From: an uncultured Candidatus Bathyarchaeia archaeon
GTDB taxonomy: Archaea; Thermoproteota; CALKCG01; B24; DRYS01
Direction of reading: 5' to 3'
Length of the DNA stretch: 64,000 nucleotides
Assembly: GCA_964491605.1 (NCBI GenBank)
Contig: CAZBGY010000003.1
Span: 24,678-88,677 of the forward strand
A program made the position numbers and the translations under genes. Shown here in pieces: positions 4,835-53,156 of this stretch (the first letter of the stretch is position 1; the number at the start of each line of letters is the position of its first letter). The notes under the pieces are model-generated. The model saw only the letters and a list, made by a program, of their open reading frames with translations, was not told the DNA's origin and made no database searches.

Positions 4835-4842
4835 AAGCCCGG

Positions 4843-5115: not shown

Positions 5116-5229
5116 AAAGATAAACTTTCCCTAGCTAGTGTATGGATGTACGATAGGGTGAGTCAAAGGGTTTACGCTTACATGTTTGGAATATAGCGGA
5201 GTAAATTCTTATAGTATCGCGGATATAGA

Positions 5230-6576: not shown

Positions 6577-6579
6577 TCC

Positions 6580-7197: not shown

Positions 7198-7254
7198 AGT
7201 GTATCGGGTGAAGCTGTTTATAAGGAAGACTATCTAGGTTAAACTGTAATCGTC

Positions 7255-8790
7255 ATGGATGCATGGGTGCAACCGTTAGATCCGATAGGATGCCTCCCCC
7301 TCTCATGCCTAGCTTCATTTATACCTATAATGTCTCTTATAATCCTACTATGCATACTAAGGATCCCGGGATGGAAAGCTGCTTTAGCATCCTCGATAAT
7401 ATGTTTTGCTATCTCTCTAACGATATATAAGGCTCCATTCTATATAGCTTTATCGAGCTACTTATACGGCTTCGCATTCGGTTTCTGGCCTATATCCTGG
7501 ATAGTGGTTAACGCTGTATTCTTGTACAACGTAGCTAGAGAGAGCGGGTGCGTAGAGGAGCTTATCAGGTGGATGAAGAACAGTCTACCAAATAGTAGAG
7601 GACTATATGCTCTCTTCATAGCATTCCTACTGGGAGGGCTTATAGAGGGCGTGGATGGGTATGGATTTCCTATAGCCATCTCAGCCACCCTACTAGTAAG
7701 CTTAGGATTCAAACCTATAGACGCTGTATGTATATCGCTCATAGCGAACACCGTAACCGTACCGTTCGCAAGCCTAGGTGTACCTGTAGAGACTTTAAGA
7801 ATAGTATCGAATCTAGAGCTAAGATCTATATGCATACATCTTTCGCTATATCTTTCTCTGATAGCGATAGCGACATCCATACTCGTCGTCAGGATAGCTT
7901 CTATCCACGAATCCGACCGTAGAGTCTATGAAGCTGGGTTGATAGCTGGAGTTACGCTAGCTATATCCATATACATGGTGACGATCTATATAGATCCACA
8001 CCTCTCAGGTATATTAGCACCTATAGCCTCCATACTAGCTACGATACTCTACATAAGAATGCGATTCAAGAGTAGCGTTAAAGTTGTAGGCTTCAAAGGA
8101 TGGATACCGTGGATAATAGTCTCGATCGCTATGGGGTTTTCCGGCCTTACAGGATTCTACAAGTCGTTCTCTATGAAGATATACATACCGAATCTACATG
8201 AATCCATCTATATACCGCTCTACGGCAGTTTATCCACGGCGATCTACGAACTACAACCCTTAGCTCATGGAACGATAGCTTTAGCTTCAGCTTTAGCCGT
8301 AGCGTATATCTACGGGTTAAAGCCTTCGATCCTAGCTAAGCTATATATAGATACCTGGAGAAGGATGAGGTATGCTATACTAACCGTCATGGAGGTTTTA
8401 GGTTTAGCATTCCTAATGAATTACACAGGATTATCGTTAACGCTTGGGCACGCATTATCGCATATAGGTTTGCTATACCCGATCTTATCAGGGTTTATAG
8501 GATGGATAGGCACCTTCGTAAGCGGATCCGAAACAGGTTCGAATGCTTTATTTGGGAATCTTCAGAAAATGGCGGCTGAGATGATGGGAATAACACCATA
8601 TATAACGACCAGCTTAAACGCAGCTGGGGGAGTACTAGGTAAGATGGTATCGCTGCAAAGTATAGCGGTAGGATTATCAGCTGTAGGATTAGAAGGGGGT
8701 GAAGACGTTATCATGCGTAGATTGATCGGTTATAGCTTAGCTTTAACATCGATACTAGGATTAATAGCGTATGTAACAATACTCGCATAG
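7255..8790 (+). CDS. L-lactate permease (LctP) family transporter
   Basis: 511 aa polytopic membrane protein containing the LctP-like GSETGSNALFGNLQ signature. Confidence 0.55.
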   Translation: MDAWVQPLDPIGCLPLSCLASFIPIMSLIILLCILRIPGWKAALASSIICFAISLTIYKAPFYIALSSYLYGFAFGFWPISWIVVNAVFLYNVARESGCVEELIRWMKNSLPNSRGLYALFIAFLLGGLIEGVDGYGFPIAISATLLVSLGFKPIDAVCISLIANTVTVPFASLGVPVETLRIVSNLELRSICIHLSLYLSLIAIATSILVVRIASIHESDRRVYEAGLIAGVTLAISIYMVTIYIDPHLSGILAPIASILATILYIRMRFKSSVKVVGFKGWIPWIIVSIAMGFSGLTGFYKSFSMKIYIPNLHESIYIPLYGSLSTAIYELQPLAHGTIALASALAVAYIYGLKPSILAKLYIDTWRRMRYAILTVMEVLGLAFLMNYTGLSLTLGHALSHIGLLYPILSGFIGWIGTFVSGSETGSNALFGNLQKMAAEMMGITPYITTSLNAAGGVLGKMVSLQSIAVGLSAVGLEGGEDVIMRRLIGYSLALTSILGLIAYVTILA

Positions 8791-8935
8791 CTGAGGAAGC
8801 TTCTTGAAGGAAAATGATCGACTGATGGATAAGAGAATCAACTGAAAAGCTATAGTAGCCTTATCCAAGCCTTTCTAAAATCATAGAGCAATATAATAAG
8901 ACTTAAATAATTTCCAATGAAATTATTCAATAAAT

Positions 8936-9943
8936 ATGAAAGCAGCTGTTGTCGAAAAACCTGGAGTAATCGTCGTAAAGGATGTGCCTAAACCGAAGCT
9001 TGAGAGCGATTATGATGTGATAATTAAGGTACGTAAAGCTGCGATCTGCAGACATCCAGACTATGAGCTATTTCAAGGAATTCGCTCCCCTGTGAGAGCT
9101 GGTTGGGAGCCTACAAACTACCCCTTCATACTAGGACATGAGTTCAGCGGGGAAATAGTTGAAATGGGATCGAAGGTTAACGAAGTTTATCCTAAGCTGA
9201 AAAATGGGGATAGGATATGCGAGTGAACTTGGTGCGAGGGATTTGCAGAATATGTGAGGATAAACGTACGAGAGATAGCTGCGATAGCAACGCTCCCAGA
9301 TAACGTTTCAGACGAAGAGGGAGCTATCCTCGAGCTGGCAGGAGGCTCAACCATATTCCATGCGTGGGCTGCTATAAAACCACTCGATAAAGTTTTGGTG
9401 CTCGGCTGTGGACCAGCTGGCTTAAGTATCATACAACATGCAAGAAATTTTGGAGCTGATACCGTCGTCGGCACGGATATATACGATGATAGGCTTAAAG
9501 CGGCTAGGATGGTTGGGGCTGATGCTGTTTATAATGCGTCGGAGTATGAGCCTGATGAGTTAGGCAGGGTGATAAAGAGGGAGTTCGGCGAGATGGATTT
9601 AGTCTTCGATACAGCTGGAACAAGCAAAGCTATCTTTACTGGTGTAGAAGCTTTAAAGCCTAAAGGCTCCTTCTACATCTTTGCTCATGTATCAGAATCT
9701 GTAACGGTTCCATACTTGAAGATAGCTACAAAACTGAGCCATTTCGGTCCACCAATAGGTATGCCTAGTCACGTTAGGATGAGGAAGCTAATGGAGCTAG
9801 CAGTAAAGTGGGTGTCTGAAGGACGACTTGACGTTAAGACCATGATAACCCACCATTTTCCGTTGGATAAGATAGGGGAGGCGCTTACATTCAACTGGGA
9901 TAAACCTCAAGAGTGTATCAAAGTAGTAATCGATGTAGCATGA
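8936..9943 (+). pseudogene. Zn-dependent alcohol dehydrogenase/MDR family gene interrupted by one in-frame TGA (9224-9226)
   Basis: ORFs 8936..9226 and 9254..9943 are in the same frame. The first gives the GroES-like N-domain (GHEFSGEIVEMG...GDRICE). The second continues with GFAEYV and the Rossmann domain (VLGCGPAGL). Only a single stop separates them. Confidence 0.5.
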
Positions 9944-9958
9944 ATATGGGGGAGCGTA

Positions 9959-10831
9959 ATGGGTAGCATAAGATTAGCCATATCAGGTCAACAGCTCGGA
10001 GGATTCGGTAAGTCGCTTGAGGAGATACTATCGATACTTAAAGACTTTTCAATTTCGTGGATCGAACTGTGGACCTTCAACCTGATAGGAGGATTCCGAG
10101 GTAAGAGATGCAGCGATGAGGATTTAATTATGACGAGGGAGCTACTCGATGAGTATGGTATAAGTGTAGCATGCATCACGAACGGAGATGCTTTCGTGGA
10201 AGGGATATCCGAGAGACCAGAGGCATATATTGCATCGATGAAAGAAACAATCAGAATAGCTAAAGAGCTTAATTCGCCGTTTGTAAATTGCTATGTCTAT
10301 TATTTCGCCCTCGGTCACGATTCAAATATTAACCCATTCGTTAGGATAATGAAGCCTATAGTGGATTATGCGGAGAAGTTAGGCGTAACGATCGTCTTGG
10401 AGAATGAAGCACACGATGCTTCCGGGACTCCTGAAGGTATGCTTAAAATACTTAAAGCTTTAAACTCTGACTTTTTTAAGACGAACTTCGATGCAACTAA
10501 TTACTACCAAGCAAACGTTGAGCCCTTCCCTTATGCTTATGAAGTATTGAAAGACTACATAGCATACATCCACTTAAAGAATGGATGTAAGTTTATACCA
10601 GGTGTACATCCAGATTATGCTAGAGGAGGCCCGTTCGCTCCGCCTAATGAATCTCACCGCATATTTTACCCACCACTACCATACGGAGCTGTGAATATAG
10701 AGGGATTGATTCTACGATTAAAGCAAGATGGATATGATGGATTTTGTACGCTTGAACCACACGTACGTACATTGGATAAGCTTATGGAATATTACAGAGT
10801 AGAGGTATCCTATTTAAAACAACGCATCTGA
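9959..10831 (+). CDS. Sugar phosphate isomerase/epimerase (xylose isomerase-like TIM barrel) family protein
   Basis: 290 aa; general similarity to AP endonuclease 2/xylose isomerase-like TIM-barrel proteins. Weak call. Confidence 0.4.
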   Translation: MGSIRLAISGQQLGGFGKSLEEILSILKDFSISWIELWTFNLIGGFRGKRCSDEDLIMTRELLDEYGISVACITNGDAFVEGISERPEAYIASMKETIRIAKELNSPFVNCYVYYFALGHDSNINPFVRIMKPIVDYAEKLGVTIVLENEAHDASGTPEGMLKILKALNSDFFKTNFDATNYYQANVEPFPYAYEVLKDYIAYIHLKNGCKFIPGVHPDYARGGPFAPPNESHRIFYPPLPYGAVNIEGLILRLKQDGYDGFCTLEPHVRTLDKLMEYYRVEVSYLKQRI

Positions 10832-27657: not shown

Positions 27658-28224
27658 CTATAGCATGTAAAGATTACCGACGCTTCCATAAACAAATGAA
27701 TCCAGCATAGCTTTATGCATCGTGAAGATTGCATGCCGACCAGTGCAATGTGATGGGACGATAATCTTCGGACTTATTTTTCTCAGCTCTTCTACGGTTT
27801 GGTTGATACGCTTCTCGAATTCCCTACCTCCTAGATGGAAGCCGCCTAAAACGGCGTAAACCGTCTCTATACCTGTAAGATGTTGTGCATAGCTGATCGT
27901 ATTTATTATACCAGCATGACTGCATCCAGATAGGATAATTAGCCCCTTACGCTTAACATCGATTACTAACGCTCTTTCATCCCATATCCATGGATCTGGC
28001 TCCCACCTACCATTAATGAAAGCTCTATGTTGTGGATAGCCCTTCTCGAAGGAGGTTTTCCGCGGAATCTCACCGGTAACCAATGCTGAGCTATCGGCTA
28101 TGAGGAGTGGTTTGCTCACCTCGATATACCCAGCTGGTTTAATCCTATCTTCAGATGGAAAGCTTGTAGCGATAGTTAAGCAGAATGCGAAGATGTTAGT
28201 TGAAAGGGAGAATATCGATATCAT
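27658..28224 (-). pseudogene. Remnant (C-terminal half only) of an MBL-fold metallo-hydrolase (COG1237-like)
   Basis: The C-terminal half carries ILSGCSHAGIIN...GGFHL...PSHCTG, but the N-terminal HxHxDH half is absent. Upstream sequence is occupied by opposite-strand fragments. Confidence 0.4.
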
Positions 28225-28606
28225 ACTAATCGATGGCCCTCCATGGATAGGCTGTCCGGCAATATCCTCTGTTGTAGATGTGGATATAGGTCTAATAGTT
28301 ACTGAGCCTACAGTATCAGGTTTTCACGATCTGAAAAGAGTACTACTCTTACTGTAACATTTCGATACCCCATCCTTAATATGTATAAACATGTATGATA
28401 TAAATTATGATAATATCGTAGAATTCTGCAGAGAAAATGATATAGAGGTTATTGGTAGAATCCCCTTTAACCCGAAGGTTATCGAGGCGATGATTAATAG
28501 GAAAACTATCATAGAGTATTCTCCAGAAAGCGATGTTGCAAAGGAGATAGAGAGAATATGGGGGGAATACTTAATTATAATCATATTATTATATTGTCTA
28601 ATTTAA
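28040..28606 (+). pseudogene. Fragment of a MinD/CooC-superfamily ATPase (COG1149-like), with internal TAA and missing N-terminus
   Basis: ORFs 28100..28357 (ILIDGPPWIGCPAISS...VTEPTVSGFHDLKR) and 28391..28606 (VIGRIPFNPKVIEAM) are in one frame, separated by a single TAA. No Walker A or ferredoxin region lies upstream. Confidence 0.5.
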
Positions 28607-28633: not shown

Positions 28634-29576
28634 ATGACTTCACCAGTATTCGGGCCAGTTCCCTCAAGGCGTTTAGGAAGAAGTCTAGGGATAAACAATA
28701 TCCCGTATAAGACGTGTACGTATTCATGCGTATACTGTCAGCTAGGAAGGACAACTCATATGCTTATTAGAAGGCGAAGATTCTATAAACCAAAGGAGAT
28801 TTTAACTGAGGTTGAAAGGAAGGTTGAAGAATTACGCTTAAAAGGTGAGCGGATAGATTATTTAACCTTCGTCCCTGGCGGTGAGCCAACTTTAGATGCT
28901 AACCTCGGAAGGGAGATTCTACTTCTAAAGCGGATAGGTATTCCGATAGCTATTATAACTAACGCTTCTCTACTCTGGAAGCATGATGTTAGAGAGAGCT
29001 TACTTGAAGTCGATCTTATTTCATTAAAGATCGATGCAGTTAGTCAAAACTTATGGAAGAAGGTGAATAGGCCGCATAAGAACTTGCAGTTAAATGACAT
29101 TTTACACGGCATAAAAGAGTTTACTAAAATATTTGATGGAACAATAATAAGTGAAACGATGCTTATTGATGGCATAAACTATGGTGAAGAACTTAAGCGG
29201 ATAGTAGACTATCTTGGGAAGCTAGATAAATTAGATGCGGCTTATATAGCGGTGCCGACAAGACCGCCAGCGGAGGGATGGGTTAAACCAGCTAGAGGGG
29301 GTCTTAAACGAAGCTTTCCAAGCATTTTCAAAGGAGCTTGGAGGTGAGAGAATAAAATTTTTAGTGAAGCATGAAGAGGATACCTTCGCTTTTACTAGGG
29401 GGATCGAGGATGAGATAGTTAGCATAGCGGCTGTGCATCCGATACGGAAAGACTATTTAACGAAGTTTTTAAACAGCATTGGAGTGGATACGTGCATCAT
29501 AGAAAAGCTTATTCAAGAAGGAAAACTAGTAAAACTTAGATACGGCGGAGACGAGTTTTATAGGAGCCGTTTCTAG
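28634..29576 (+). CDS. Radical SAM protein (COG0731-like); reading frame shifts at a G5 run (29296-29300)
   Basis: CxxxCxxC (CTYSCVYC) and GGEPTL motifs. Removing one G from the G5 run fuses ORF 28634..29347 seamlessly to 29364..29576 (…GWVKPARGVLNEAFQAFSKELGGERIKFLVKHEED…). Confidence 0.55.
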
Positions 29577-30490
29577 AATATACTGTACAATGGATGATTT
29601 TTAACTAGCGGCTTTATACCTAGGCTTCTTGCATGATACGCTATTATCGCATCGATTACCGCGCATATAGGAAAGATATGTTTCGCTTTCGCGATTGAGC
29701 CGTAAACGATGAAATTTGCCCCCATCGCCTGAGCGAGGGATAGTACTCCACCTCTACATGCTATCTTCGCATCCTTCTCTAGGCCTTTATTTTTACACCA
29801 TTTCCCCACAACACCTATCGGCGCTGTCCCAGTGGGTAAACCGAACTTTTCTTTAGCTATGTAGACACCGTAAACTGCAAAACCTATATTTGGAACATCC
29901 AAAACTGGCGTGAAGATTAAGGGTTTCTCTATCCCAGCCCTTAAAGCTCTCATAATTAACCCCTCTTTTTCTAGGGTTCCCTCAAGGATCTGGATCATTC
30001 CATCTGGATACGGATTTCTAGGGTTAAAAGCTTGAACGATAGCCGCCTTCAACCCGGTTCCTTTAATTGCTTTAATTTCCTCCTCGTTCAGCGTATAATT
30101 TATCGAGTTGTAAACCGCTTTATCCTGGAGACCAACCTCTCTCACGTAATTCGCTGCTTCAACCCTAACGGAGGCGTTAGGCCCATTTATTAAGAAGGGA
30201 CTGTTAGTAATGCTTGCTACAAATTCGATGTATTTTATTAGTGCCTTGGAAGTTTCTCCGACAACATCGAGCATGCATGGAACACCAGTTTTATTAGACA
30301 TTTCCTCTTGAATATTTATCAATCTTTCAGCTTCGATTTTATCGAAAATCCCTAAATATCTATCCTTAACTATTTTTTGCCTCTCATGAAATATACTTCC
30401 AATCAGTACAGTAGGCAATTCTCCTAGCTGCCCACTTATCCTTACTCCTCCAATATCGAAAATTTCCTGTCTCCTCCCAAACTTAAATAA
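29573..30490 (-). CDS. MtrH-like methyltransferase (tetrahydromethanopterin S-methyltransferase subunit H family homologue)
   Basis: From memory of MtrH sequences, the start of MtrH resembles the 24 codons immediately upstream of the first canonical start (TTG at 30418), which read LFKFGRRQEIFDIGGVRISGQLGE. At the homologous initiator position this gene has TTA. Confidence 0.6.
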   Translation of the reverse strand, partial: LFKFGRRQEIFDIGGVRISGQLGELPTVLIGSIFHERQKIVKDRYLGIFDKIEAERLINIQEEMSNKTGVPCMLDVVGETSKALIKYIEFVASITNSPFLINGPNASVRVEAANYVREVGLQDKAVYNSINYTLNEEEIKAIKGTGLKAAIVQAFNPRNPYPDGMIQILEGTLEKEGLIMRALRAGIEKPLIFTPVLDVPNIGFAVYGVYIAKEKFGLPTGTAPIGVVGKWCKNKGLEKDAKIACRGGVLSLAQAMGANFIVYGSIAKAKHIFPICAVIDAIIAYHARSLGIKPLVKNHPLYSIF

Positions 30491-30561: not shown

Positions 30562-30921
30562 TTACTTCTCAAGAATTGCTAGATTTTCCTTAATAACATC
30601 TGCAACTTTGGTATTAGGCTTTACCGGGATAACCCTTACATTATGATAGTTAAGTAGCTCTGAAGCTTCCAGTCCTAGTTCCGCCGCTAATACTACATTC
30701 ACATTAAGATCTACCAAGGTTTTTACCACGATTGGTCCTGATCCATGCTTATATGATGATGCAGGATTATCGAGGATATATACGCTTATAATCGTACCAT
30801 CTTCGATATCGATGATGGTGAATGTCCTGGCTCTACCGAATACTTCTGAGACAACATCATCTAGACCTGCATGAGCTTTTGTTGGAACGGCTACTCTTAC
30901 CTTTCCCATATCGATCAGCAT
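30562..30921 (-). CDS. Dinitrogenase FeMo-cofactor-binding (NifX/NifB C-terminal-like) domain protein
   Basis: 119 aa; KVAVPT...FGRARTFTIIDIEDG...GSG...VNVVLAAELG pattern of the Nitro_FeMo-Co domain. Confidence 0.65.
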   Translation of the reverse strand: MLIDMGKVRVAVPTKAHAGLDDVVSEVFGRARTFTIIDIEDGTIISVYILDNPASSYKHGSGPIVVKTLVDLNVNVVLAAELGLEASELLNYHNVRVIPVKPNTKVADVIKENLAILEK

Positions 30922-31156: not shown

Positions 31157-31393
31157 CTATCTAAAGCCCCTCTCAAGCATATCCTTTAACTCCTTTATTC
31201 TCGTCTCAACCTCTCTTATCTCCTCTTCGATATCTGCCTTCTCTTCCTCAAGATGCTTCTTGTAATCTTCTAGCGCCTTCAATTCATCCTCTGGAGATAT
31301 AAAGGGATATCGTGGTAGATACATATATGGATATGGCGGTGGATAGATCCACCATCGCCAGAATCTCTGCCTTCCAAACCACACCATCCTCAT
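31157..31393 (-). CDS. DUF5320-like small protein (Trp/Tyr/Pro/Arg-rich N-terminus plus acidic coiled-coil C-terminus)
   Basis: The N-terminus is WFGRQRFWRWWIYPPPYPYMYLPRYPF. It is followed by SPEDELKALEDYKKHLEEEKADIEEEIREVETRIKELKDMLERG. This architecture matches DUF5320 as remembered. Confidence 0.4.
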   Translation of the reverse strand: MRMVWFGRQRFWRWWIYPPPYPYMYLPRYPFISPEDELKALEDYKKHLEEEKADIEEEIREVETRIKELKDMLERGFR

Positions 31394-31407
31394 TCACCCC
31401 TCATAGT

Positions 31408-31662
31408 TTAATACCAGTATGGCGGATAAATTATTGGGGGAAGACAATATGGGAGACCGTACCCATAGTAGTATGGGTATACCCACCACCATCTTGGAAG
31501 CCATGGAAATCTAGCACAAACCCATGGATTATATGGGTAGCCCCAAAGCCATCTACCGAAGCCGAAAAGCCATCCAGGCCTCTGCCATGGTGGCAAGTAG
31601 CTAAACGGCCCTCTCCCAGGCCAAGGCCCAATCCAACCAATATCTCTCCAACCCCAAGCCAT
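31408..31662 (-). CDS. Extremely Trp/Tyr/Pro/Gly-rich small ORF (84 aa; about 19% W, 14% Y)
   Basis: MAWGWRDIGWIGPWPGRGPFSYLPPWQRPGWLFGFGRW...WWWVYPYYYGYGLPY. The frame was chosen because it continues the composition of the next gene's N-terminus. The DNA here is CCATGG/CCA-rich, so all three reading frames stay open. Confidence 0.3.
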   Translation of the reverse strand: MAWGWRDIGWIGPWPGRGPFSYLPPWQRPGWLFGFGRWLWGYPYNPWVCARFPWLPRWWWVYPYYYGYGLPYCLPPIIYPPYWY

Positions 31663-33641
31663 TTGGGATCACCAAATATTGTGCATATGCACACAAATAT
31701 ATAAATCTTTCGTTAATATAGTTCATCTAGAGGATACCAAACATGTTGCGAAGATTGTATGATATCATAGATTTGAATATAGGAGAAGAGGTAAGTTACC
31801 AAAGTCTGTAGGGTTGACGACTTCGCAGACTTAACTAATGCTACACTCGAACTGCCGAGTCACTTAGATCCTATATTCCTAGAGATTGCGAGCTTGAAGT
31901 TTTCAGATCTGTCGGTTTTGAGAGATACTAGATTCGTCTCTAGAGTTAGCTTAACAACATTTCCATCTTCCTAGTTTATAACCTTAAGATGATGTGCTAG
32001 GTTGGATGGAACTCGGATGTATTAATCCTAGTTACCAGTAAACTTTGAAGCTTCTCTAACCGATAAAAGAGCCCCTTATCGGTTTCTTCTCCCCTATATC
32101 AGATATCACTTAAACTGCAAACTTAGATTTTGTAAAGTTCATAATTACTGGGAAAAGATCAATCATACTTTCAGTCGTTCGGTGTTATTATCATGATGAA
32201 TGTATGATTTGTACCATCACTTCTACCTTCATACTAGCTTAGATATACGCTATTCAATCCTTCATTAGATGCTATTTCGCATAGCTTTCTATCCGCTGCT
32301 AGAAATCATATAGCGTTTACATTTTTAGCTTAAGCTATTTGTAGTGCGTCAGCTTAATACACATGACATTTCTCGAGTATGATCTATGCCTATTTCAACG
32401 TTATACTCTTTACATGAAGTAGTATAAGCGAACGAAGCCTAGCCAACCTTATGGTCTCAAGTATAAATCTTCTCGTAGCGATGTAATCCTCTTCGATTAT
32501 CTTCTTAATGCTTTTCGCCCTATCTAATACGTCTAAAACCTCGCCGATATTCCATATATTAAACGATAGCTTCAACTCGCCTCCATATGCTTTCCTATAT
32601 AATTCCCTTACAAACTCTATGCCAGGGCTCCTCAATATACCTCTTTACGACGGCACTACTATCGAGATAGACTATCTGATCTACCTATCCATCATCCTTT
32701 TAACCAGCATACTCATAAGATCCTCCTTCGGTATTACAGGTTCGAAATCTAACTCATAGGTTTTTCGAGTTGGCGAGCTCATTTAAACCCTTCTCTACAT
32801 AATCCATAAGCTCCCCTATAAACGAACTAGTTTCTAAATCTTTCTCCCACAGCATAACTTTTAAACATCCTTCAAAGCTTTTTCATCCACATATATACTA
32901 CTCTTCCTTCTAGATATATAGACACCAACAGATATATACCGAAAACATTTTTAGACATTTCTACCTAAAGCATTTACTAGAAAACATCTATTGAATAGTC
33001 CAAGATATGGTGTATGCTATCTGAACATTAGATCTTAAGATTCAATTAAGTTATGAAGGGAGTTAAATATCTAAAATGCTATCGATAAAATCATCGATGA
33101 AACTATGATTAAAACATAGATTTCAATAAATCTTAATCTAAGCTCTTTACTACGTTCTAAAACTTTTTCATAGACATACAGCATTATTATGAGTAGTTTT
33201 GATATATTCTTCACTATTCCTCCTTCCGGATAGAAAAATACTACATAGTAACTGATAATTATTCGTTAACACTTAAAAATCTACTTAGGATAATGAATGT
33301 TTGAAGCTGGCTAGAGAGATCATATAATAAAAATTTAAGTTACAGCCTCCTAATCTAATCTCCGCTAAACCTTATCTAGCAGTCTATTTAGAGTTAGTAG
33401 AAGATCTAGTACACTCTAGAAGTATCCTTGACGAAAAGCTGATGATACGTAGACCTGAGGATTGACGCCACCTAAACTCTCGATACAACTATGCTGCTTC
33501 TATATAGCTTAACTCGCAAGTTATTTTAGGAAACCTAGAAAATGTTAACCTTCTTCTAACTAGTAGTTAATGGGATGGTTATAGATGTCATCTACGATAT
33601 ACGTTAAGATTAAATGGTTGAATGCGTGATCAGAGAATGTT

Positions 33642-36907: not shown

Positions 36908-37759
36908 ATGAGGTTTAAGGTTAAGGTATTCGAGAGCTGCTACTGGATACCTGGATACGATTTCGAAAGTGAGATCATTTCTAGGGTTAGCCGTTATGCT
37001 AAGACTGGAGATTATCTGGTAATCTCCGAGAAGGCTATATCTACCGCTTTAGGCTACCTAGTCGATGAGTCTAAGCTTAAACCCGGCTTATCTGCTAGGA
37101 TTCTAGCCAGAATATGGATCCCAGTATTTTGGGGCTACCTACTCGGGGTCCTATGCGGCTTGAAGCCTAGCACGCTTGTTAAGCTTAGGAATTATCCGTA
37201 TACTGAGGGGGTACGTCATAAGGAGGCTGCGATACGCTACGCAGGCCCGGTAGCTGCTTTAAAGCATTTCTCCGAAGGGGGATTGGATGTGAATAATCTA
37301 CCGTATAGCTATGCATCCCTACCCCTACCAAGATGTGAAGCCCAGGAGTTAGCTTCTAGAATTAGGATGAAGCTAGCTAACAGATACGGATTAGATGTAA
37401 CGGTGGTTATCGTAGATAGCGATCATACGTTTAGCTGGAGATCGATATATCTATCCTCAAGACCAGCGGCCGACGGTATCATAAATCTCTCTACGTTAGG
37501 ATTCATAATAGGTTCATCGTTAAGGTGGAAAGCTAGACCTACACCTATAGCTATATCAGGATCCTATGGAAGCTTAGAGGAGATTTTAGAGGTTTGTAGG
37601 ATTGCCGATAAGACCATGGGATACGGTCTAGGTAGAGATATATGGGATGTATCGTCTAAACTCGGTGTTCCACCTACTGGTTTAACGTGGAGTATCCTTA
37701 TGATGTATACGCATAAACCCTATGCTTTGATACGTAAACTCGATCAATACGTATCTTAA
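36908..37759 (+). CDS. CofE-like (F420-0:gamma-glutamyl ligase family, COG1478) protein
   Basis: DYLVISEKAISTALGYLVDESKLKP and GGLDVNNLP-like motifs; 283 aa. Confidence 0.4.
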   Translation: MRFKVKVFESCYWIPGYDFESEIISRVSRYAKTGDYLVISEKAISTALGYLVDESKLKPGLSARILARIWIPVFWGYLLGVLCGLKPSTLVKLRNYPYTEGVRHKEAAIRYAGPVAALKHFSEGGLDVNNLPYSYASLPLPRCEAQELASRIRMKLANRYGLDVTVVIVDSDHTFSWRSIYLSSRPAADGIINLSTLGFIIGSSLRWKARPTPIAISGSYGSLEEILEVCRIADKTMGYGLGRDIWDVSSKLGVPPTGLTWSILMMYTHKPYALIRKLDQYVS

Positions 37760-44857: not shown

Positions 44858-45880
44858 ATGTCTAGGAGGATACTTGATGGTGATGTTATCTATAGTAGGG
44901 ATGGATTCATATTCTATGTATTCGGCTACGAACACCCGCCAGATAGAGCTATAGCATTCCTTAAGTATATCCCAAAAGAATACTCTGATAAGCTTAATCT
45001 GGAGTATCTAAAGTACGAATGGGTGTTTAAGGGAAGGAGGTATGTTAGACCTGCTTCGCTCTATACGGCTAGCAACTATCAACGTATAATAGAATTCTTC
45101 GAAAACTATTACCCAGACTATGTATACGATTGCCATGTAAACGGTAGAAAGCTTATAGCAGTCCCTAAAGATTTAATCGAGGAAATCTACTATCCGGATG
45201 AGGGGCTACGTAAGATTCTAGGTATCAGCTCGCTTCCACCCATATACAAGGTTTCGGTGGAGCTTATCGAACTTATCTCGAGAACATCCGGTATCGGCTT
45301 AGAAAATTTCGGTTTACATGGATCGCTCCTTCTAGGTATGGAGTCTGAGAAGCCCGATATAGATATAGCCGTCTACGGATGGCAGAACTACCGTACGATT
45401 AAACAGACTCTCATGGAGTTGGAAGCGAAGGGCTATCTAAAGATCCTCTACGAAACTCCTACAGATTATAGAAGGAGGAATAGATGTATCTTCAGGAACT
45501 ATAGAGCTGTCTTCAACGCTATACGTAAACCTTGGGAAGTTCACGATATATACGGATCCGTGATACGTAAATCGGTTAAGCATGTAAGATTTAGGACAAT
45601 AGTTAGAAACGCTTCTGAATCGATATTCCGTCCAGCCATATACATAATACAGGGATACACGCCTTTAGATGAATCCTCACGCATAGATAAGGAGGATATT
45701 CCGTGGCTTCTAGTATCGATGGTAGGAGATTATAGGGATGTGATCGAGGAGGGCTCTGTGATAGAGGTCGCAGGTCTACTTGAAAGAGAGTATCTACCAG
45801 ATGGCAGGCCGTATAGGACTAGGGTTATTGTAGGTTCGGGTTTAAGAGATGACGAATATATAAGTGTAGTGAAGGAGTAA
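44858..45880 (+). CDS. Nucleotidyltransferase-fold protein, paralogue A (unknown family)
   Basis: Pol-beta-type motif [24 protein letters not shown] in the middle of the protein; conserved N-terminal domain G-x-I-F-x-V-x-GY-x-HPPD shared with the next gene. Confidence 0.45.
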
Positions 45881-45885
45881 ATCGT

Positions 45886-46956
45886 ATGTCTACGAGGCTT
45901 AGAGATAGAGATTATATCGTCGGAGCCGAGGGTATAATCTTCAGGGTTTTAGGCTACTTCCACCCTCCAGATGGCTATATATGCGAGCCGGAGTATGCAC
46001 CTAAAAGGATATTCACATCCGAAAATCCTAGAGCACTTAGAGGCTACCCTGAAATATCATACTTCAAATTCTATGGAGATGAAGGGTTAAGATTCGTAGA
46101 GGAGAATTATCCGTCGTATCGTCTATACGTTAAACCTCTTAAAACATACCTCGTAGGCGTTCCCAATAATCTTATCGCAGCTGTTAGGAAACCGCAGGAT
46201 AGGCTAGCTAAGATCATAGAGGAAAGCTACAGAGATAAGCTTCTAGAGGATACCCTCGATATCGTGGAGATCGTATGCGAAAATGCAGAGCTCAACCTCT
46301 CTAGTCTAGGCGTTTTCGGATCGATTCTACATGAATTTTATAACCCATTCCTATCGGATATAGATTTAGTAGTTTATGGGTCGAAGAATACTATTAAGCT
46401 TATGGAATGCTTATCCGAGCTGTACAGTGGAAGAGACAGTCCTCTTAGGAACGAATATGATTTCCCTGTGGAGAAAGCTAGATGGATCTTTAGAAACTAT
46501 AGCTTTAAGGAATACATCTTTCATGAAAGAAGGAAGATGATATACGCTAAGTATTGGGATGGGAGTAGATGGGTTAAAGTCGAGTTCGAACCTGTTAGGG
46601 ATTATGACGAATACCATAACGAATACATGGATGTAAATTCGATAGAGAAGATCGGATGGGTTAAACTCGAATCTATCATTGTAGATGATAGTGGGGTATA
46701 CTTTATGCCAGCTACATACGGGGTTGAAGTAACGAAGCTTATATCAGGTCCTAAGGAGGCTTTAGAGGCTTCTAAGATAATATCCTATATCGATGAATTC
46801 AGGATTCAAGCCTGGAGGGATGAAGAAGTCTACGTGGAGGGGATGCTTGAAAGAGTCGTTAGGAATGATGAAGTGGAATATCAGGTTTCCATAACATACT
46901 GCGATAGGTATGGAGACCAGGTTCTTAAGCTTAAGAAGATACCAGGTAGATTATAA
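45886..46956 (+). CDS. Nucleotidyltransferase-fold protein, paralogue B (unknown family)
   Basis: LGVFGSILHEFYNPFLSDIDLVVYG motif; N-terminus MSTRLRDRDYIVGAEGIIFRVLGYFHPPDG aligns with paralogue A; shared IFRNY and G(L/M)LER motifs; 5 nt intergenic gap. Confidence 0.45.
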   Translation: MSTRLRDRDYIVGAEGIIFRVLGYFHPPDGYICEPEYAPKRIFTSENPRALRGYPEISYFKFYGDEGLRFVEENYPSYRLYVKPLKTYLVGVPNNLIAAVRKPQDRLAKIIEESYRDKLLEDTLDIVEIVCENAELNLSSLGVFGSILHEFYNPFLSDIDLVVYGSKNTIKLMECLSELYSGRDSPLRNEYDFPVEKARWIFRNYSFKEYIFHERRKMIYAKYWDGSRWVKVEFEPVRDYDEYHNEYMDVNSIEKIGWVKLESIIVDDSGVYFMPATYGVEVTKLISGPKEALEASKIISYIDEFRIQAWRDEEVYVEGMLERVVRNDEVEYQVSITYCDRYGDQVLKLKKIPGRL

Positions 46957-47713: not shown

Positions 47714-48388
47714 CTACGGTACTATCATCGTTCCTCTAACGTTTTTCCCTTCCAACGCATACCCGACTATATCTGGGTTTAAACCGTTAACGATCATGCA
47801 TTTGATAGGTTTAAGCCTGAATAGTCTGGGGAAGAATCTATCCACGCATACCTCTTTAAGCTTCTCCAACTCCGAAACGCTTACGATAGGCATAAACTCT
47901 GCTTCAGGATGGATCCTAGGATCCATTCTGTAAACCCCATCCACATCCTTCACCAGTATAAGTTCCTCGATATCCCAATCCTGAGCTAACTTTAAAGATA
48001 TCGAATCCGATGTCACATCCCAACTTTCAGGTAAATCCCTTAACTCCTTCAACCCGTATACCTCTAATATGGGAGTATAACCATCTACCCATAATCTCTG
48101 CGCTTCACTTAAACTCGAAGCCACCCTACCGTTAGGTATAAGGTACGCTAGGAGTAGACCATAGATATCCATAGATTTTACAGCCATCCAATGGGATATA
48201 CGGTTCGATAAATCGAGAAGCCTATCTATATACCTAACGGAATCTGCGAATATACCTCCACCTGGAATTACTAGGAAGGATCTAACCCTACGATTCGATA
48301 GAAGCCTACATAGCTCTACGAGTTTACTTGGATACCTCAATAAGCTGCCGCCCAGCTTAATTATACACTCTATAGCTCCGGATCCCAA
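47714..48388 (-). CDS. Amino-acid-kinase-family protein (COG2054-like archaeal kinase)
   Basis: IKLGGSLL N-terminal motif; about 224 aa; overlaps the next gene. Confidence 0.5.
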   Translation of the reverse strand: MGSGAIECIIKLGGSLLRYPSKLVELCRLLSNRRVRSFLVIPGGGIFADSVRYIDRLLDLSNRISHWMAVKSMDIYGLLLAYLIPNGRVASSLSEAQRLWVDGYTPILEVYGLKELRDLPESWDVTSDSISLKLAQDWDIEELILVKDVDGVYRMDPRIHPEAEFMPIVSVSELEKLKEVCVDRFFPRLFRLKPIKCMIVNGLNPDIVGYALEGKNVRGTMIVP

Positions 48389-49455
48389 TATATCCTCCTA
48401 CCCTCTAAATACGAGGCTGCAAGGAAAGCTAAACCTACAGCCGGAGTCATTATAGCTACATCTCTACGAGTGATACTACTAAGTCTAACAACTGGTCTCA
48501 ACCCCGCCTTCACAGCAGCTTCAGCGGCTAGGAAATCTTCACCTAAACCTGTGGCGATACACGGTATATCTTCGACACCGTAATGTTCCCTCATCCTCTC
48601 AGCCTTCCTCTTCAAGCTTGAAGCTATAGCTTCAAGCTGCTTCTCATAGAAGTATCTAGCTATAGACATTATATCCTCCATATCGAGGGTTTTAGTATCT
48701 GCACACACAGTTCTTGCGATACGGCTGGCAGCTTCCTCCTTGGATAAACCCCTACCATCGGGAGTATCGCACGTATAGTCTTCGATCGATATAAAGCCTA
48801 ACAACAGATATACATCACCCGTTTGAGCGAAGTATTCGCTGCTAATGTTAATCCATCGATCCTTGAGACTTATCCTGGAAGCAATAGTTGCTAGATTCGT
48901 CCTTAAAGCACCTGTATAGACGAGTTCGTATAGTTGTAGCTTCTCTAAATCTGTGAAACCTTCAGCTTTAACTTCACCCATCGCCACCGGTACTATGCTC
49001 GTCGTGGTACTACCTACATCCACTAGTATACATAGATCGAAGAACTGTGACGCAAACCATCCTGATGCATACCAATTCGAAGCTGCCACCTTGTACGGAT
49101 CCTCTAAGGCGTCATCCATACTTAGCAATCTACCGCTACAATCTAGAACCCTAATATCTACATCTCTGAAAATTTCGAGTACAGCATGACATATAGCGGC
49201 CACACCTTCATCCTTAGATCTGAATATGTCGGATAGCTCCCCGGTCATAGTTAGAGCAACCATATCAGGCTCCCCCCAATTCTGTAGAGTCTCTAGAGAA
49301 AGGATCTTCAATGTAGATGGAAGCTCCGAAAGCCTCTTCCAGAGCGGTAGGTAACGTATACCAGTCGATAGGCTTACAGCTCTCCCCCTGTGAACGTTTA
49401 AAGCTGCGATCTTAGTATTCGCTCCACCTACGTCGATACCTATAGTTAGGGTCAA
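48370..49455 (-). CDS. Hydantoinase/ASKHA-like protein (COG1548-type, methanopterin-pathway associated)
   Basis: N-terminal IGIDVGGANTK ASKHA phosphate-1 motif, and a second DVGSTTT motif. Confidence 0.5.
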   Translation of the reverse strand: MTLTIGIDVGGANTKIAALNVHRGRAVSLSTGIRYLPLWKRLSELPSTLKILSLETLQNWGEPDMVALTMTGELSDIFRSKDEGVAAICHAVLEIFRDVDIRVLDCSGRLLSMDDALEDPYKVAASNWYASGWFASQFFDLCILVDVGSTTTSIVPVAMGEVKAEGFTDLEKLQLYELVYTGALRTNLATIASRISLKDRWINISSEYFAQTGDVYLLLGFISIEDYTCDTPDGRGLSKEEAASRIARTVCADTKTLDMEDIMSIARYFYEKQLEAIASSLKRKAERMREHYGVEDIPCIATGLGEDFLAAEAAVKAGLRPVVRLSSITRRDVAIMTPAVGLAFLAASYLEGRRIYWDPEL

Positions 49456-50600
49456 TCTAGCTTACCCCTTATATCTAGGAGATCAACCCAGGCATCTCTT
49501 AAACTATAACCGAAACCTGAGATTAAGCTATAGCCGTCTATAGATGCTATAAGCCTATCATCCATATGTAAGCCTACATCTAATGCAGCCTTCCTAACCT
49601 TTAGGAAAACTGAAAAACCTCTGAATTCATTAAATATATCCATCTCTCGAAGTTTACCATATACAGCCGCCTCTAATACGACTTCAGCTGGATTTCTCCT
49701 GTAGCTTCTACTTAAACCGATATATGAGACAGTTAATCTAGGATTAACCTCGATCACATATACTTCACCGCCAGCTATAACCGTATCGACGCCTACATAA
49801 CCTTTCAACCCATGTAGAAGAACCTCCAGCTTATCGATAAGCTCATCCATATGGATGTAAGGTAATATCAACGGTACATATCCCCCGAAGTAAGATGAAC
49901 CAGTATATGATAGATTTACGAATTGACGGTTAATCGATAAAGGCTTCAACGAGCACCCATTTGATATAAGCGAAAGGCTTGAAGCTAAACCCTTCACATA
50001 TTCTTGAACAATCCATAATCTATCGCGATGTCTAAGAAGTTTCTCAGCCTCACCACGATCCCTTACTACACGTAAACCGCTACACCCAGCTTCCAACCTA
50101 GGTTTAACTATCAGAGGGTAACCGAGCTTATCCAGATCTTCTAAAGTAACCTCATCTAAATCGATCGATCTAGGAGTTTTCACACCCATTCTCGAAAGTT
50201 CATAGTAGAGATCTAGCTTATCGATAATTCTATCCAGCGTATCGATACACCCATTAGCTATTATCGACGATCCGTATTCATCCTCTATTCTATGGAGTAT
50301 GGAGGATAGGAAGCCGTTTGTCTCAGGCGCTATAACGTAAACCTTATCGAAATCCAGTTCACCTATCCAGTACAGTATATTCTCTATACATGAATCCTTA
50401 AGGTAGATCTTACGGCATGGTAGTATGGAGTCGGGTAGATTGACTACAAGCTTTCTATCCACAACAGTATATAGATCGACCCAACTAAGCTTAGATACAT
50501 CTACAGAAAATCTCCTAAGCATAGAGAAGCCTTCGATTAGAATCGAGGGTGGGGCATCGATTAAACCAGCCGTTAATGCTTCTACTAAGAGAAGCTTCAA
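49452..50600 (-). CDS. ATP-grasp ligase (COG1821-type)
   Basis: GYPLIVKPRLEAGCSGLRVV ATP-grasp core and IEVNPR motif. Confidence 0.5.
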   Translation of the reverse strand: MKLLLVEALTAGLIDAPPSILIEGFSMLRRFSVDVSKLSWVDLYTVVDRKLVVNLPDSILPCRKIYLKDSCIENILYWIGELDFDKVYVIAPETNGFLSSILHRIEDEYGSSIIANGCIDTLDRIIDKLDLYYELSRMGVKTPRSIDLDEVTLEDLDKLGYPLIVKPRLEAGCSGLRVVRDRGEAEKLLRHRDRLWIVQEYVKGLASSLSLISNGCSLKPLSINRQFVNLSYTGSSYFGGYVPLILPYIHMDELIDKLEVLLHGLKGYVGVDTVIAGGEVYVIEVNPRLTVSYIGLSRSYRRNPAEVVLEAAVYGKLREMDIFNEFRGFSVFLKVRKAALDVGLHMDDRLIASIDGYSLISGFGYSLRDAWVDLLDIRGKLD

Positions 50601-50702
50601 CGCATACCACCAATCCTGGAGTCTAGTTTCGATCGATATTATCGAATCTAGTAGATAGATTAAACGTTTATATGACCTTATAGAACCCGTTCAATTTAAG
50701 GT

Positions 50703-51434
50703 TTGATAGTTATACCTGTGATAGACGTTATGAACGGCTTAGCGGTTCATGCTGTTAGAGGTGAGCGGAAAGCGTATAAACCGTTAGAGAGCATCTTATC
50801 CAAATCCACGGATCCGGTGGAGGTAGCATCGATATTCTCGAGTATAGGATTTAACCATATCTATGTAGCAGATCTAGATGCTATAATTCATAGGATGCCT
50901 TCATGGAGTTTATACTCGAAGTTGAAATCCGTAGTCAGATATCTCATGCTCGATAACGGTGCTAGATCATATAGAGATTGCATGAAGCTTTTAGATCTAG
51001 GTATAGATTACGCTGTGATCGGAACCGAGACGTTCGAATCTATGAGTGAGCTTAAGAACCTCTTAGAAGCTTATGCTGATAAGGTTATCATAAGTGTTGA
51101 TCTTATGCATAACCAGATACTTTCACCTATACAATCTGTGAGAATATTGCGTGTAGATGAATACCTGAGAATCCTACACGGATTCGGTCTTCGTTCAGCT
51201 ATAATACTAGAACTCTCGAGAGTAGGATCCGGTTTAGGTATCGATACTGATATGATGAATATGATAGGTAGATTAACGCCGCTGGTCGATAAGCTCTATG
51301 TAGGGGGAGGCGTTAGATCTATCGAAGATATAGAGGTATTGAAGGAGATCGGTGTCTACGGTGTTCTCATAGCTACAGCTCTGCATAAAGGATGGGTAGC
51401 GATAGAAGGTCTAAGAAGTAAAGGATATCTCTAA
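50703..51434 (+). CDS. HisA/HisF-like TIM-barrel protein (COG1411-type)
   Basis: IIPVIDV...G..V N-terminus; YVADLDA and GGGVRS phosphate-binding motifs. Confidence 0.55.
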   Translation: MIVIPVIDVMNGLAVHAVRGERKAYKPLESILSKSTDPVEVASIFSSIGFNHIYVADLDAIIHRMPSWSLYSKLKSVVRYLMLDNGARSYRDCMKLLDLGIDYAVIGTETFESMSELKNLLEAYADKVIISVDLMHNQILSPIQSVRILRVDEYLRILHGFGLRSAIILELSRVGSGLGIDTDMMNMIGRLTPLVDKLYVGGGVRSIEDIEVLKEIGVYGVLIATALHKGWVAIEGLRSKGYL

Positions 51435-51655
51435 GCTTCTACGAGAGTCTCCGTACTCCTCACACCTTCTATACGGTTTATCTCAGCCGAAATCCTGGCA
51501 ACTTCCTCGTTACTCTTAGCTTCTATGAAGCATACTACATCAAAACGTCCGTAGACCGGGTAGCATTTAACAACGCCATCGATACTCTTTAAGGCATCCA
51601 ACACCTTAGCTAACCTTATAGGTACGACTTTCATCAATATGCAAGCTTTAACCAT
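51431..51655 (-). CDS. Stand-alone Lrp/AsnC ligand-binding (RAM) domain protein
   Basis: 74 aa; V...D.V..V..YGRFDVV..IEA pattern. Confidence 0.5.
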   Translation of the reverse strand: MVKACILMKVVPIRLAKVLDALKSIDGVVKCYPVYGRFDVVCFIEAKSNEEVARISAEINRIEGVRSTETLVEA

Positions 51656-51893
51656 GGACTTCCACCCCTTTCATCTCAATAAGAGTCTCCGTAAATACTA
51701 CGGAGCCAAGCCTCCCGATCCTTCTAACGATCCTAGTAAGCTCCTCTATATCGGAAGCCTCTACATCAGCTACTACATCCCAGCGTCCGAGTACTGGAAA
51801 TACATTCTTAACCTGCGGTATCTTACTCAGAGATTCCACGACATCTATGTATCTACCGGTTGAGCTTCTTATGAGAATGCATGCAGATATCAA
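51648..51893 (-). CDS. Stand-alone Lrp/AsnC ligand-binding (RAM) domain protein (paralogue)
   Basis: 81 aa; VFPVLGRWDVVADVEA; overlaps its paralogue by 8 nt. Confidence 0.5.
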   Translation of the reverse strand: MISACILIRSSTGRYIDVVESLSKIPQVKNVFPVLGRWDVVADVEASDIEELTRIVRRIGRLGSVVFTETLIEMKGVEVHG

Positions 51894-52037
51894 GGTCTAC
51901 GACACCATTATATTTCTGGTAAGCTATATACACATAAATATTCCGGTCTACGACAGGTTTACCGAGTATAGATTCCTGAAAGAAACGTTTAATAGAGGTA
52001 TCTAATGGTAAATGATTCTCTACAGGAAACGTAGGCT

Positions 52038-53156
52038 ATGAATAGAGTGGGCCTAGTATATGATAAGCTGACATCGGATGAGGAGGAAATAATACTGGAA
52101 GCTGAGAGGAGAGGCTTCCAACTCAGATATCTATTTGTTAAGAACCCTGTACAAGCGTATCTTCCAAGTTCTAAGCTTATAGATCTACCGGTTGTATTCA
52201 ATAGATGCGAGAGTAAGAGAAGAGCTCTAGAGGCAGGCAGGATAATCGAGGATAACGGTATACCTGTAGTAAATCCTTTCAAAGTTGAGTATCTATGCGC
52301 CGATAAGATAGAGACTTTAAAGTTATGGTTTAATAACGGTATAAATACACCTAGATGGGTATACGCATCTTTTACGGGGAGGGATGGATTTCTCGATAGC
52401 GAGATCGAAGATATAGCCGATGAAATCGAGAAGTTAGGGTATCCTATCGTAGTTAAACCTACTATGGGGAGCTGGGGTAGGGGAGTCGTGAAGATAGATG
52501 ATAGATGCAAGCTTATCGAGGCTCTACGTAATTCTCATCCATCACCTATAAATCCGGATGGATTCTTCGCTCAAGAGTATGTAGAGAAGCCAGGGTTCGA
52601 TCTACGTATACTCGTAGGTCTCAAACCTAGAGGTGATATTAAAGTTTTATGCGGAATAGCACGCATATCTCCATCACCTAAGGAGTTTAGAACTAATACT
52701 CATCTTGGCGGTATACCACTCGGGCTTAAACTAGATGAAAATTCGAAGATAGTCAAAGAAGCGGTGGATGCTGGTAAAATCCTACTGAATGGGTGTAAGT
52801 GGGGTGTGATAGCGTTGGACGCCATGCCTGATGCTAGAGGTGTAGATTACAGCATGATTTATAGGTATGTACCTGAATGTAATAATCTATTCCAGCAAAT
52901 TAGGAGACTTGTAGAGGAGAATAAGCAGTATAGATATAGATCTTGGAAACACCTTCTAGAGGATGCCTTCTTAAAATACAAATCTTCTGAAGCATATATC
53001 AAGATGGAGGCGATCGTACATGAAATCCTAGAGTTCTGCAAACTTAAATGGCATGAAGCTAATTCTAGGTTCGATTACGCGGTGAATACTCGTAACGCTT
53101 CGGGTTTCAACCCGGCTAAATTCTACCTAGATATAGCTGAAGATTTAGCTTACTAA
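52038..53156 (+). CDS. RimK-family ATP-grasp ligase (MptN/LysX/CofF-like) with C-terminal extension
   Basis: GYPIVVKPTMGSWGRGV ATP-grasp motif; preceding pre-ATP-grasp domain; 372 aa. Confidence 0.55.
   Translation: MNRVGLVYDKLTSDEEEIILEAERRGFQLRYLFVKNPVQAYLPSSKLIDLPVVFNRCESKRRALEAGRIIEDNGIPVVNPFKVEYLCADKIETLKLWFNNGINTPRWVYASFTGRDGFLDSEIEDIADEIEKLGYPIVVKPTMGSWGRGVVKIDDRCKLIEALRNSHPSPINPDGFFAQEYVEKPGFDLRILVGLKPRGDIKVLCGIARISPSPKEFRTNTHLGGIPLGLKLDENSKIVKEAVDAGKILLNGCKWGVIALDAMPDARGVDYSMIYRYVPECNNLFQQIRRLVEENKQYRYRSWKHLLEDAFLKYKSSEAYIKMEAIVHEILEFCKLKWHEANSRFDYAVNTRNASGFNPAKFYLDIAEDLAY

Follow-up and report, generated by a model that had tools for sequence, protein, structure and literature searches.

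A probable core methanofuran biosynthesis cluster, accompanied by a long-form LysX-type ligase, in an uncultured Bathyarchaeia archaeon

The region from 47.7 to 51.4 kb of a 64-kb stretch of DNA (the window), which stems from the metagenome-assembled genome of an uncultured Bathyarchaeia archaeon, very probably constitutes the core of a methanofuran (MFR) biosynthesis cluster. It encodes a kinase, a hydantoinase-like protein and an ATP-grasp protein that are homologues of the MFR core enzymes MfnE, MfnF and MfnD, as well as a divergently oriented HisA-like barrel (Table 1). An earlier note on this DNA had proposed a cluster for the biosynthesis of tetrahydromethanopterin (H4MPT). All open reading frames (ORFs) named there were found in place, and their fold and family assignments proved correct with Pfam and NCBIfam profiles. 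The four families do co-occur in islands described as "H4MPT-linked C1 transfer", but NCBIfam, the synteny and published work on methylotrophs (PMC8141765) identify the cofactor as methanofuran. The identification combines the family assignments, operon structure and synteny determined here with the reactions of MfnD, MfnE and MfnF and the requirement for Orf17, which are taken from the literature.

The top NCBIfam family of the kinase was MfnE (NF040622), with 118 bits over 209 of the 211 profile positions (cut-off 300) and isopentenyl phosphate kinase as the runner-up (41 bits); its top match in the Protein Data Bank (PDB) was 7QRH with 73.5 bits. The assignment of this amino acid kinase to LysZ or ArgB was rejected, given an argB score of 20 bits versus 118 bits for MfnE. 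The hydantoinase-like protein exceeded the cut-off of TIGR03123 (327 bits, cut-off 244), a family that carries the name "probable H4MPT-linked C1 transfer pathway protein", as do many database entries, and reached 265 bits with the MfnF model NF040623, which is under the cut-off of 520. It matched the Methanococcus maripaludis protein Q6M145 (PDB 3C0B/3CET) over the full length with 204 bits. Its homologues number 2460, with Bathyarchaeia at the top, and some of them are labelled MfnF synthase by the Joint Genome Institute (JGI).

The top NCBIfam match of the ATP-grasp protein was MfnD_Meth (NF040722; 84 bits, cut-off 400), limited to profile positions 158-259. A profile of its family had 3DF7 from Archaeoglobus fulgidus as the top PDB match, with 144 bits and far above other chains, and the alignment consisted of two segments that together span both halves of 3DF7. 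The same structure was the best Foldseek match (target-normalised template modelling score 0.84) of an AlphaFold (AF2) model with a predicted local distance difference test score (pLDDT) of 93.5. Judged by these profile and structure matches, the protein appears to be MfnD-like throughout. Roughly 55 residues are inserted internally and roughly 70 are added at the C-terminus, both features being typical of the bathyarchaeal family of 380-415 amino acids; some homologues bear the JGI label tyramine-L-glutamate ligase. The motifs K-P...G, QEY and D...E-x-N are intact in the window sequence, and K166-P167, Q199-E and D272...E-V-N286-P-R are conserved across the family (alignment A3).

The ATP-grasp gene shares 4 nt with the MfnF-like gene, which in turn shares 19 nt with the MfnE-like gene; the three thus form one operon. 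The MfnF alignment A1 yielded 80 loci in species genomes of GTDB, nearly all of them bathyarchaeal, which were compared by local tblastn and by clustering their complete set of ORFs. Every locus with enough flank (80 Bathyarchaeia loci) showed the same invariant order, ATP-grasp>MfnF>MfnE; the MfnE-like gene lies directly 3' of MfnF in 81/81 loci, and the ATP-grasp gene directly 5' of it in 77/81. Within a subset of 45 loci with at least 8 kb of upstream and at least 4 kb of downstream sequence, MfnE was present in all 45, the ATP-grasp in 44, the HisA-like barrel in 43, the MfnB family in 40 and the MfnA family in 25. The commonest layout is HisA-like< MfnB> MfnA> ATP-grasp> MfnF> MfnE>. A representative of the MfnA family scored 502 bits with TIGR03812 (cut-off 299), and one of the MfnB family 280 bits with the (5-formylfuran-3-yl)methyl phosphate synthase model. 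The recurrence of this gene order in independent genomes indicates that the clustering is not due to chance, and the co-clustering with MfnB and MfnA together with the conserved order settles the identity of the cluster as MFR. In archaea, the linkage of the HisA-like gene to the furan-cofactor genes is as tight as that of MfnB, in agreement with bacterial genetics.

These genetic data come from Methylorubrum (M. extorquens), in which Orf17, a PF00977 protein and homologue of MJ0703, is essential for methylofuran, with no step assigned to it there (PMC8141765). MJ0703 had once been proposed to act in H4MPT biosynthesis; an orf17 deletion mutant lost methylofuran and still made methenyl-dephospho-H4MPT (methenyl-dH4MPT), "thus invalidating" that proposal, at least in bacteria (Hemmann et al. 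2021, PMC8141765). The window barrel is a probable member of the MJ0703/Orf17 family, which by analogy with the bacterial genetics is predicted to be required for furan-cofactor biosynthesis. It scored 158 bits over the full 221-position profile of TIGR00734 (hisAF_rel), just under the cut-off of 179.85, and 101 bits with the true HisA model TIGR00007 (cut-off 229). We rejected its identity as a real HisA since it falls under the HisA cut-off and the family never occurs in a histidine-gene context. With HisA and HisF it shares the (beta-alpha)8 barrel, D8 and D133 at the catalytic aspartate positions of HisA, and the C-terminal GGG phosphate-binding loop; D8, D133 and G201-203 are at least 95% conserved in the family. 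It differs from them by its sub-cut-off HisA score, by mfn instead of histidine neighbours and by the N-terminal phosphate site, where GGG is replaced by D84-x-G86. From the conserved catalytic aspartates and the single GGG loop, we infer that the barrel may act by acid/base chemistry on an intermediate with a single phosphate group, at an early stage of core formation.

In methylotrophs, Orf22, Orf21 and Orf9 correspond to MfnB, MfnE and MfnF, whereas OrfY (MyfA, MfnD-like) and Orf5 (MyfB, RimK/MptN-like) glutamylate methylofuran, MyfB elongating the polyglutamate chain; in archaea, the attachment of further glutamates or of terminal moieties to MFR has no enzyme assigned to it yet (PMC8141765). 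For the window cluster, we propose that the MfnD-like ATP-grasp would join glutamate via its gamma-carboxyl group to tyramine (or tyrosine) and that the MfnE-like kinase would convert [5-(aminomethyl)furan-3-yl]methyl phosphate (F1-P) by phosphorylation into its diphosphate F1-PP. On the MfnF-like protein, the phenol oxygen of gamma-glutamyl-tyramine would then displace the diphosphate of F1-PP to give APMF-Glu, the MFR core. These substrates are extrapolated to this organism from the characterised enzymes. The divergent HisA/HisF-like barrel would be a further, obligatory biosynthesis protein, and the long-form LysX-type ligase at 52.0-53.2 kb might, as a recruited accessory, add glutamate to the MFR side chain in the manner of the methylotroph MyfB. 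The finished MFR would serve formyl-MFR dehydrogenase and formyltransferase in the H4MPT-dependent archaeal Wood-Ljungdahl pathway. To our knowledge, MFR works only with these two enzymes, which feed H4MPT. The archaeal MFR/H4MPT version of the pathway has already been documented, in complete form, in Bathyarchaeia (PMC7886697).

Several findings weigh against the assignment of the cluster to MFR. The MfnE-, MfnF- and MfnD-like proteins all score under the NCBIfam equivalog cut-offs, and the ATP-grasp is approximately 90 amino acids longer than MfnD, whose model it matches only partly as a single sequence. The Mfn equivalog models appear to have been trained on methanogens, as judged from the "_Meth" names (MfnD_Meth, MptN_Meth) and the descriptions of archaeal enzymes. 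Furthermore, homologues of the bathyarchaeal MfnA and MfnB were not found by tblastn in the 64-kb window or in approximately 10 kb of its left flank, and MfnC was also absent. Pfam and NCBIfam scans of the window ORFs of at least 110 amino acids outside the ribosomal operon yielded no MfnC-candidate aminotransferase and no recognisable H4MPT- or MFR-dependent enzyme. The clade of the window (loci L002-L004 and L082-L084) likewise has no MfnA or MfnB near the cluster. We propose that this lineage has its genes for furan formation (MfnB, MfnC) and for tyrosine decarboxylation (MfnA) at other sites in the genome.

The ATP-grasp ligase downstream of the barrel had been labelled MptN-like in the earlier note, a label that we could not uphold, since it reached 36.8 bits with the MptN model NF040720 (cut-off 350) versus 122 bits with LysX (TIGR02144, cut-off 275.6). 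It scored 115 bits with rimK_fam (cut-off 143) and 37 bits with CofF, and its top PDB matches are chains of the LysX/ArgX type. Like LysX and ArgX of the LysW pathway, it has a LysX pre-ATP-grasp domain and the ATP-grasp core, but it has no LysW/Y/Z/J neighbours, scores below the cut-off and lies beside MFR genes. The 11 orthologues in alignment A2 share invariant motifs and an insertion of approximately 75 residues between the Mg-binding motifs (ALDAMP ... HEANSRFDY). This long form is rare: an exhaustive phmmer search returned 7 of 1.84 billion representatives at E<=1e-30. The ligase gene stands beside HisA-like or mfn genes in 10 GTDB loci, which fall into two clades with 48-50% identity and different gene arrangements. 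When the ligase itself was used as anchor in JGI metagenomes, MFR genes were adjacent in 10 of the 11 informative full-length homologues, so that combined the ligase adjoins an MFR cluster in 20/21 informative loci. The exception is L092 (49% identical; 4816-10016), which has an adjacent aspartate dehydrogenase gene and no MFR genes near; a 438-aa ORF in its vicinity resembles a tyrosine recombinase/integrase by eye. This context suggests a rearrangement. In our reading, the ligase would be derived from LysX and have departed from the LysW operon. RimK-family ligases that act on glutamyl cofactors have precedents in MptN, CofF and MyfB (PMC8141765), and by analogy with MyfB the window enzyme quite possibly acts as an MFR side-chain or Glu-Tyr ligase, a role that we put forward without firmly favouring it. 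The analogy has its bounds, as MyfB is 33% identical to MptN, in contrast to the LysX-derived window ligase with its insertion of about 75 amino acids and an MptN score of 37 bits.

Two genes for stand-alone RAM domains (the ligand-binding domain of AsnC/Lrp) without a helix-turn-helix lie between the HisA-like gene and the ligase gene. They overlap by 8 nt and are thus probably co-transcribed, and they are conserved only in the clade of the window (L002-L004, L082-L084). The top NCBIfam match of the 81-aa protein is the C-terminal half of LysM (32 bits).

One alternative concerns the ligase and these RAM genes, which might stand outside the MFR system. The ligase would then be a LysX or ArgX that loads alpha-aminoadipate or glutamate in trans on a LysW from another part of the genome; the RAM proteins would sense amino acids, and the proximity to the MFR cluster would reflect history. 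We consider this conceivable, if somewhat doubtful. It agrees with the LysX family score, the LysX pre-ATP-grasp domain and the PDB matches of the ligase, with the LysM match of the RAM protein and with the lack of MFR neighbours in L092. In addition, the distant long forms P0366 and P0367 (31-35% identical) reside in regulator-LysX-LysW-LysY-LysZ(-LysJ) operons, and in the second MFR-linked clade a homocitrate/isopropylmalate-synthase-like gene and the gene of a regulator resembling LysM (161 bits) are near the ligase, two genes away. Both sets of loci speak against a role of the ligase in MFR synthesis, as does its chemistry: enzymes of the RimK/LysX type extend a carboxyl end, and canonical archaeal MFR grows by gamma-glutamylation of its amino end. 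The alternative is opposed by the queries with LysW, LysY, LysZ and LysJ, which found none of them in the window and none up to 8-10 kb away at the 22 MFR-linked loci, although in the same data set they recovered all four beside generic LysX genes. The score of 122 bits is also far under the LysX cut-off, and the linkage to HisA-like and mfn genes has outlasted the rearrangement between two clades with only 48-50% identity. In the second clade, the ligase even sits between two MFR-linked genes, c9 (described below) and the HisA-like gene. The known glutamyl-cofactor ligases mentioned above likewise favour an accessory role in the MFR system.

The synthase-like gene and the LysM-like regulator of the second clade were seen immediately beyond c9 and the ligase at L085:9530-11459(-) and at the equivalent places in L014, L037, L047, L071 and L079, so that genes of the lysine-pathway type abut the MFR cluster in this clade. 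The C-terminal approximately 90 residues of the synthase-like protein look RAM-like by eye.

The gene c9 encodes a 125-aa protein resembling S-adenosylmethionine decarboxylase (AdoMetDC; TIGR03330, 32-35 bits), for example at L039:2885-3262(+), L085:9119-9496(-) and L020:12611-12976(+). It keeps a VES|G...YTW.E motif that resembles a pyruvoyl self-cleavage site. In 13 Bathyarchaeia loci, which show no fewer than three arrangements, its gene is 1.7-3.7 kb away from MfnF. There is no overlap between these 13 loci and the 39 loci with MfnA (hypergeometric P 6e-5, not corrected for phylogeny). From its motif and distribution, c9 may be an alternative, non-orthologous tyrosine decarboxylase for MFR synthesis.

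A second alternative holds that the cluster makes a modified furan cofactor, either tyrosine-containing or methylofuran-like and with alpha-linked or branched glutamates, which would explain at once the missing local MfnA, the length of the MfnD-like ligase and the presence of a further ligase of the RimK type. The RimK-like ligase never occurs together with MfnA in the clusters (0/10 ligase loci; 39 loci have MfnA), methylotrophs without MfnA make a tyrosine-type methylofuran with the RimK/MptN-like MyfB (PMC8141765), and the ATP-grasp has its insertion and C-terminal extension relative to 3DF7 and MfnD. However, MfnA is possibly encoded elsewhere, and the second clade with the RimK-type ligase has the putative alternative decarboxylase c9. 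We therefore regard a modified cofactor as unlikely. A broader scenario would have a LysX-type ligase, in some Bathyarchaeia, detach from the LysW pathway, gain a helical insertion of approximately 75 residues and be recruited as an archaeal MFR side-chain glutamylase (or Glu-tyrosine ligase), with c9 replacing the pyridoxal phosphate-dependent MfnA in the same loci and the HisA-like barrel, as marked by its near-universal linkage, being a core MFR enzyme in archaea too. Taken as a whole, this scenario is speculative and probably does not hold in all its parts.

An H4MPT-producing cluster with the RimK-type ligase as MptN and the barrel in the ribofuranosyl-aminobenzene branch is largely refuted already and highly improbable: it is left with the name of TIGR03123 and the former proposal for MJ0703, against which stand the characterised archaeal homologues MfnD/E/F (PMC8141765), the phenotype of the orf17 mutant, the clustering of the relatives' genes with MfnA and MfnB and never with mpt genes, the low MptN score of the ligase and the absence of any recognised H4MPT-biosynthesis gene (MptA GTP cyclohydrolase, MptB, MptD/E, the RFAP synthase MptG or MptN) among the window ORFs scanned.

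The earlier note had combined the cluster with an MtrH-like gene into a methanopterin-dependent C1 branch. This gene is real (Table 1), but it stands alone and unlinked to the cluster, and no other mtr subunit gene (mtrA-G) or corrinoid-protein gene was found within several kb of it. The encoded protein scored 232 bits with mtrH (TIGR01114), under the cut-off of 271, and, almost equally, 222 bits with the bacterial tetrahydrofolate-dependent MtgA; on its own it does not reveal a pterin specificity. The suggested C1 branch survives only indirectly, through the partner enzymes of MFR that feed H4MPT and through the pathway known from the lineage (PMC7886697); judged by its family, the MtrH-like gene would be compatible with an H4MPT-dependent methyl branch. 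Isolated MtrH genes, usually adjoining a corrinoid-protein gene, have been described in Bathyarchaeia (PMC7886697). The window gene resembles such MtrH/MtgA-type methyltransferases of Bathyarchaeia and Methanomethylicia in being an MtrH Pfam member without other Mtr subunits (PMC7886697), but differs from the reported ones by the lack of an adjoining corrinoid-protein gene. It is flanked by a radical-SAM gene (28634-29347) and a gene with a Nitro_FeMo-Co domain (30562-30921). Beside the radical-SAM gene, at 28100-28606(+), two short adjacent ORFs resemble, by eye, the central and C-terminal portions of a MinD/Mrp-type ATPase and probably represent a disrupted gene. At 31157-33600, small ORFs extremely rich in W, Y and P, such as 31408-31662(-) with 84 aa, give way to about 2 kb with few ORFs and a GC content of 35.5% versus about 43%. 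Neither significant repeats nor RNA families were detected in 31157-33600, and a check of the ORF-poor 31-37 kb for CRISPR and other repeats gave chance-level repeats only.

Table 1. Positions of the genes and of the intergenic region discussed in the text, in window coordinates.
Feature	Position	Strand	Length and family match
MfnE-like AA-kinase-fold protein	47714..48388	-	224 aa; PF00696 AA_kinase, 66 bits
MfnF-like ASKHA/hydantoinase-A-fold protein	48370..49455	-	361 aa; PF01968 Hydantoinase_A, 116 bits
MfnD-like ATP-grasp ligase, long form	49452..50600	-	382 aa; PF02655 ATP-grasp_3, 115 bits
Divergent intergenic (putative promoter) region between ATP-grasp operon and HisA-like gene	50601..50702	.	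102 nt
HisA/HisF-like (beta-alpha)8 barrel, MJ0703/Orf17 family	50703..51434	+	243 aa; PF00977 His_biosynth, 112 bits
Stand-alone RAM domain protein	51431..51655	-	74 aa; PF01037 on identical gene in L001
Stand-alone RAM domain protein	51648..51893	-	81 aa; PF01037, 45.9 bits
Long-form LysX/RimK-family ATP-grasp ligase	52038..53156	+	372 aa; RimK / LysX_preATP_grasp
Stand-alone MtrH-family pterin methyltransferase	29573..30418	-	PF02007, 250 bits

The divergent intergenic region contains two TATA-like stretches: TTTATAT at 50667-50673, approximately 30 nt 5' of the TTG start of the HisA-like gene, and on the opposite strand ATATTAT at 50636-50642, approximately 36-42 nt 5' of the ATP-grasp start; in both cases the similarity is a resemblance to the consensus only. 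The extended flanks of the window hold housekeeping genes and no pathway genes, namely those for AlaRS, aIF2 and TmcA on the left and for ribosomal proteins on the right. Archaeal ribosomal-protein and TFB genes are also located within the window, and Rfam and tRNA scans of it returned a single tRNA-Leu and nothing else.

Further genes were noted at the cluster and in the remainder of the window. The gene c6, encoding a 280-aa DUF362/Npun_F2552-like protein, is situated on the same strand directly 3' of MfnE in 29/81 loci, for example at L027:5317-6159(+), and may belong to the cluster without having been recognised as such; the window does not contain it. Tandem paralogues of about 350 amino acids at 44858-45880(+) and 45886-46956(+) have weak nucleotidyltransferase-fold matches and no NCBIfam family, and in the closest relatives (L003, L004) they are kept beside MfnE, along with a triose-phosphate isomerase gene. 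Positions 6580-7197(+) encode a member of the 5-formyltetrahydrofolate cyclo-ligase family (PF01812, 107 bits), in an organism otherwise expected to use H4MPT. A divergent CofE-like protein at 36908-37759(+), with 46 bits for F420-0:gamma-glutamyl ligase (PF01996) and 26 bits for the CofE equivalog, is possibly another cofactor gamma-glutamyl ligase, to judge from these matches.

Compared with the mfnA-F genes of Methanocaldococcus jannaschii (MfnD MJ0815, MfnE MJ0458, MfnF MJ0840), the window cluster comprises the same three families, each as the top NCBIfam match, and the structural relatives of its proteins come from MFR-using archaea (3C0B of M. maripaludis, 3DF7 of A. fulgidus). It differs by the arrangement of the trio in one overlapping operon, by the MfnD-like protein being about 90 aa longer and by the absence of mfnA, mfnB and mfnC from the window. 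Going by their locus numbers, we take mfnD, mfnE and mfnF to be scattered in M. jannaschii. The H4MPT/methylofuran island of methylotrophs likewise has a kinase, a coupling enzyme, an MfnD-like ATP-grasp, a HisA/HisF-like barrel and a RimK-family ligase (PMC8141765); in contrast, the window host is archaeal, and its cluster is not interspersed with genes of fhc, of H4MPT enzymes or of H4MPT biosynthesis.

The mfn cluster described here is an ordinary one, from a lineage whose use of MFR was known before, and the MFR/H4MPT pathway in Bathyarchaeia is not new. Its analysis corrects an annotation trap, as genes named "H4MPT-linked C1 transfer pathway" belong to methanofuran and not to methanopterin. 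The compact, operon-encoded sets of MfnD, MfnF and MfnE with the HisA-like protein from an uncultured lineage could be expressed for a reconstitution of the pathway. The role of the MJ0703/Orf17 barrel and the enzymes building the archaeal side chain become a little more tractable: the Bathyarchaeia clusters tie the barrel to the pathway as closely as MfnB and provide two candidates for accessory enzymes, namely the long ligase resembling LysX and the AdoMetDC-like c9. The leads that follow for the family are a LysX-derived long ligase at MFR clusters, a tight archaeal linkage of the Orf17 barrel to furan-cofactor genes and a c9 that is exclusive of MfnA.

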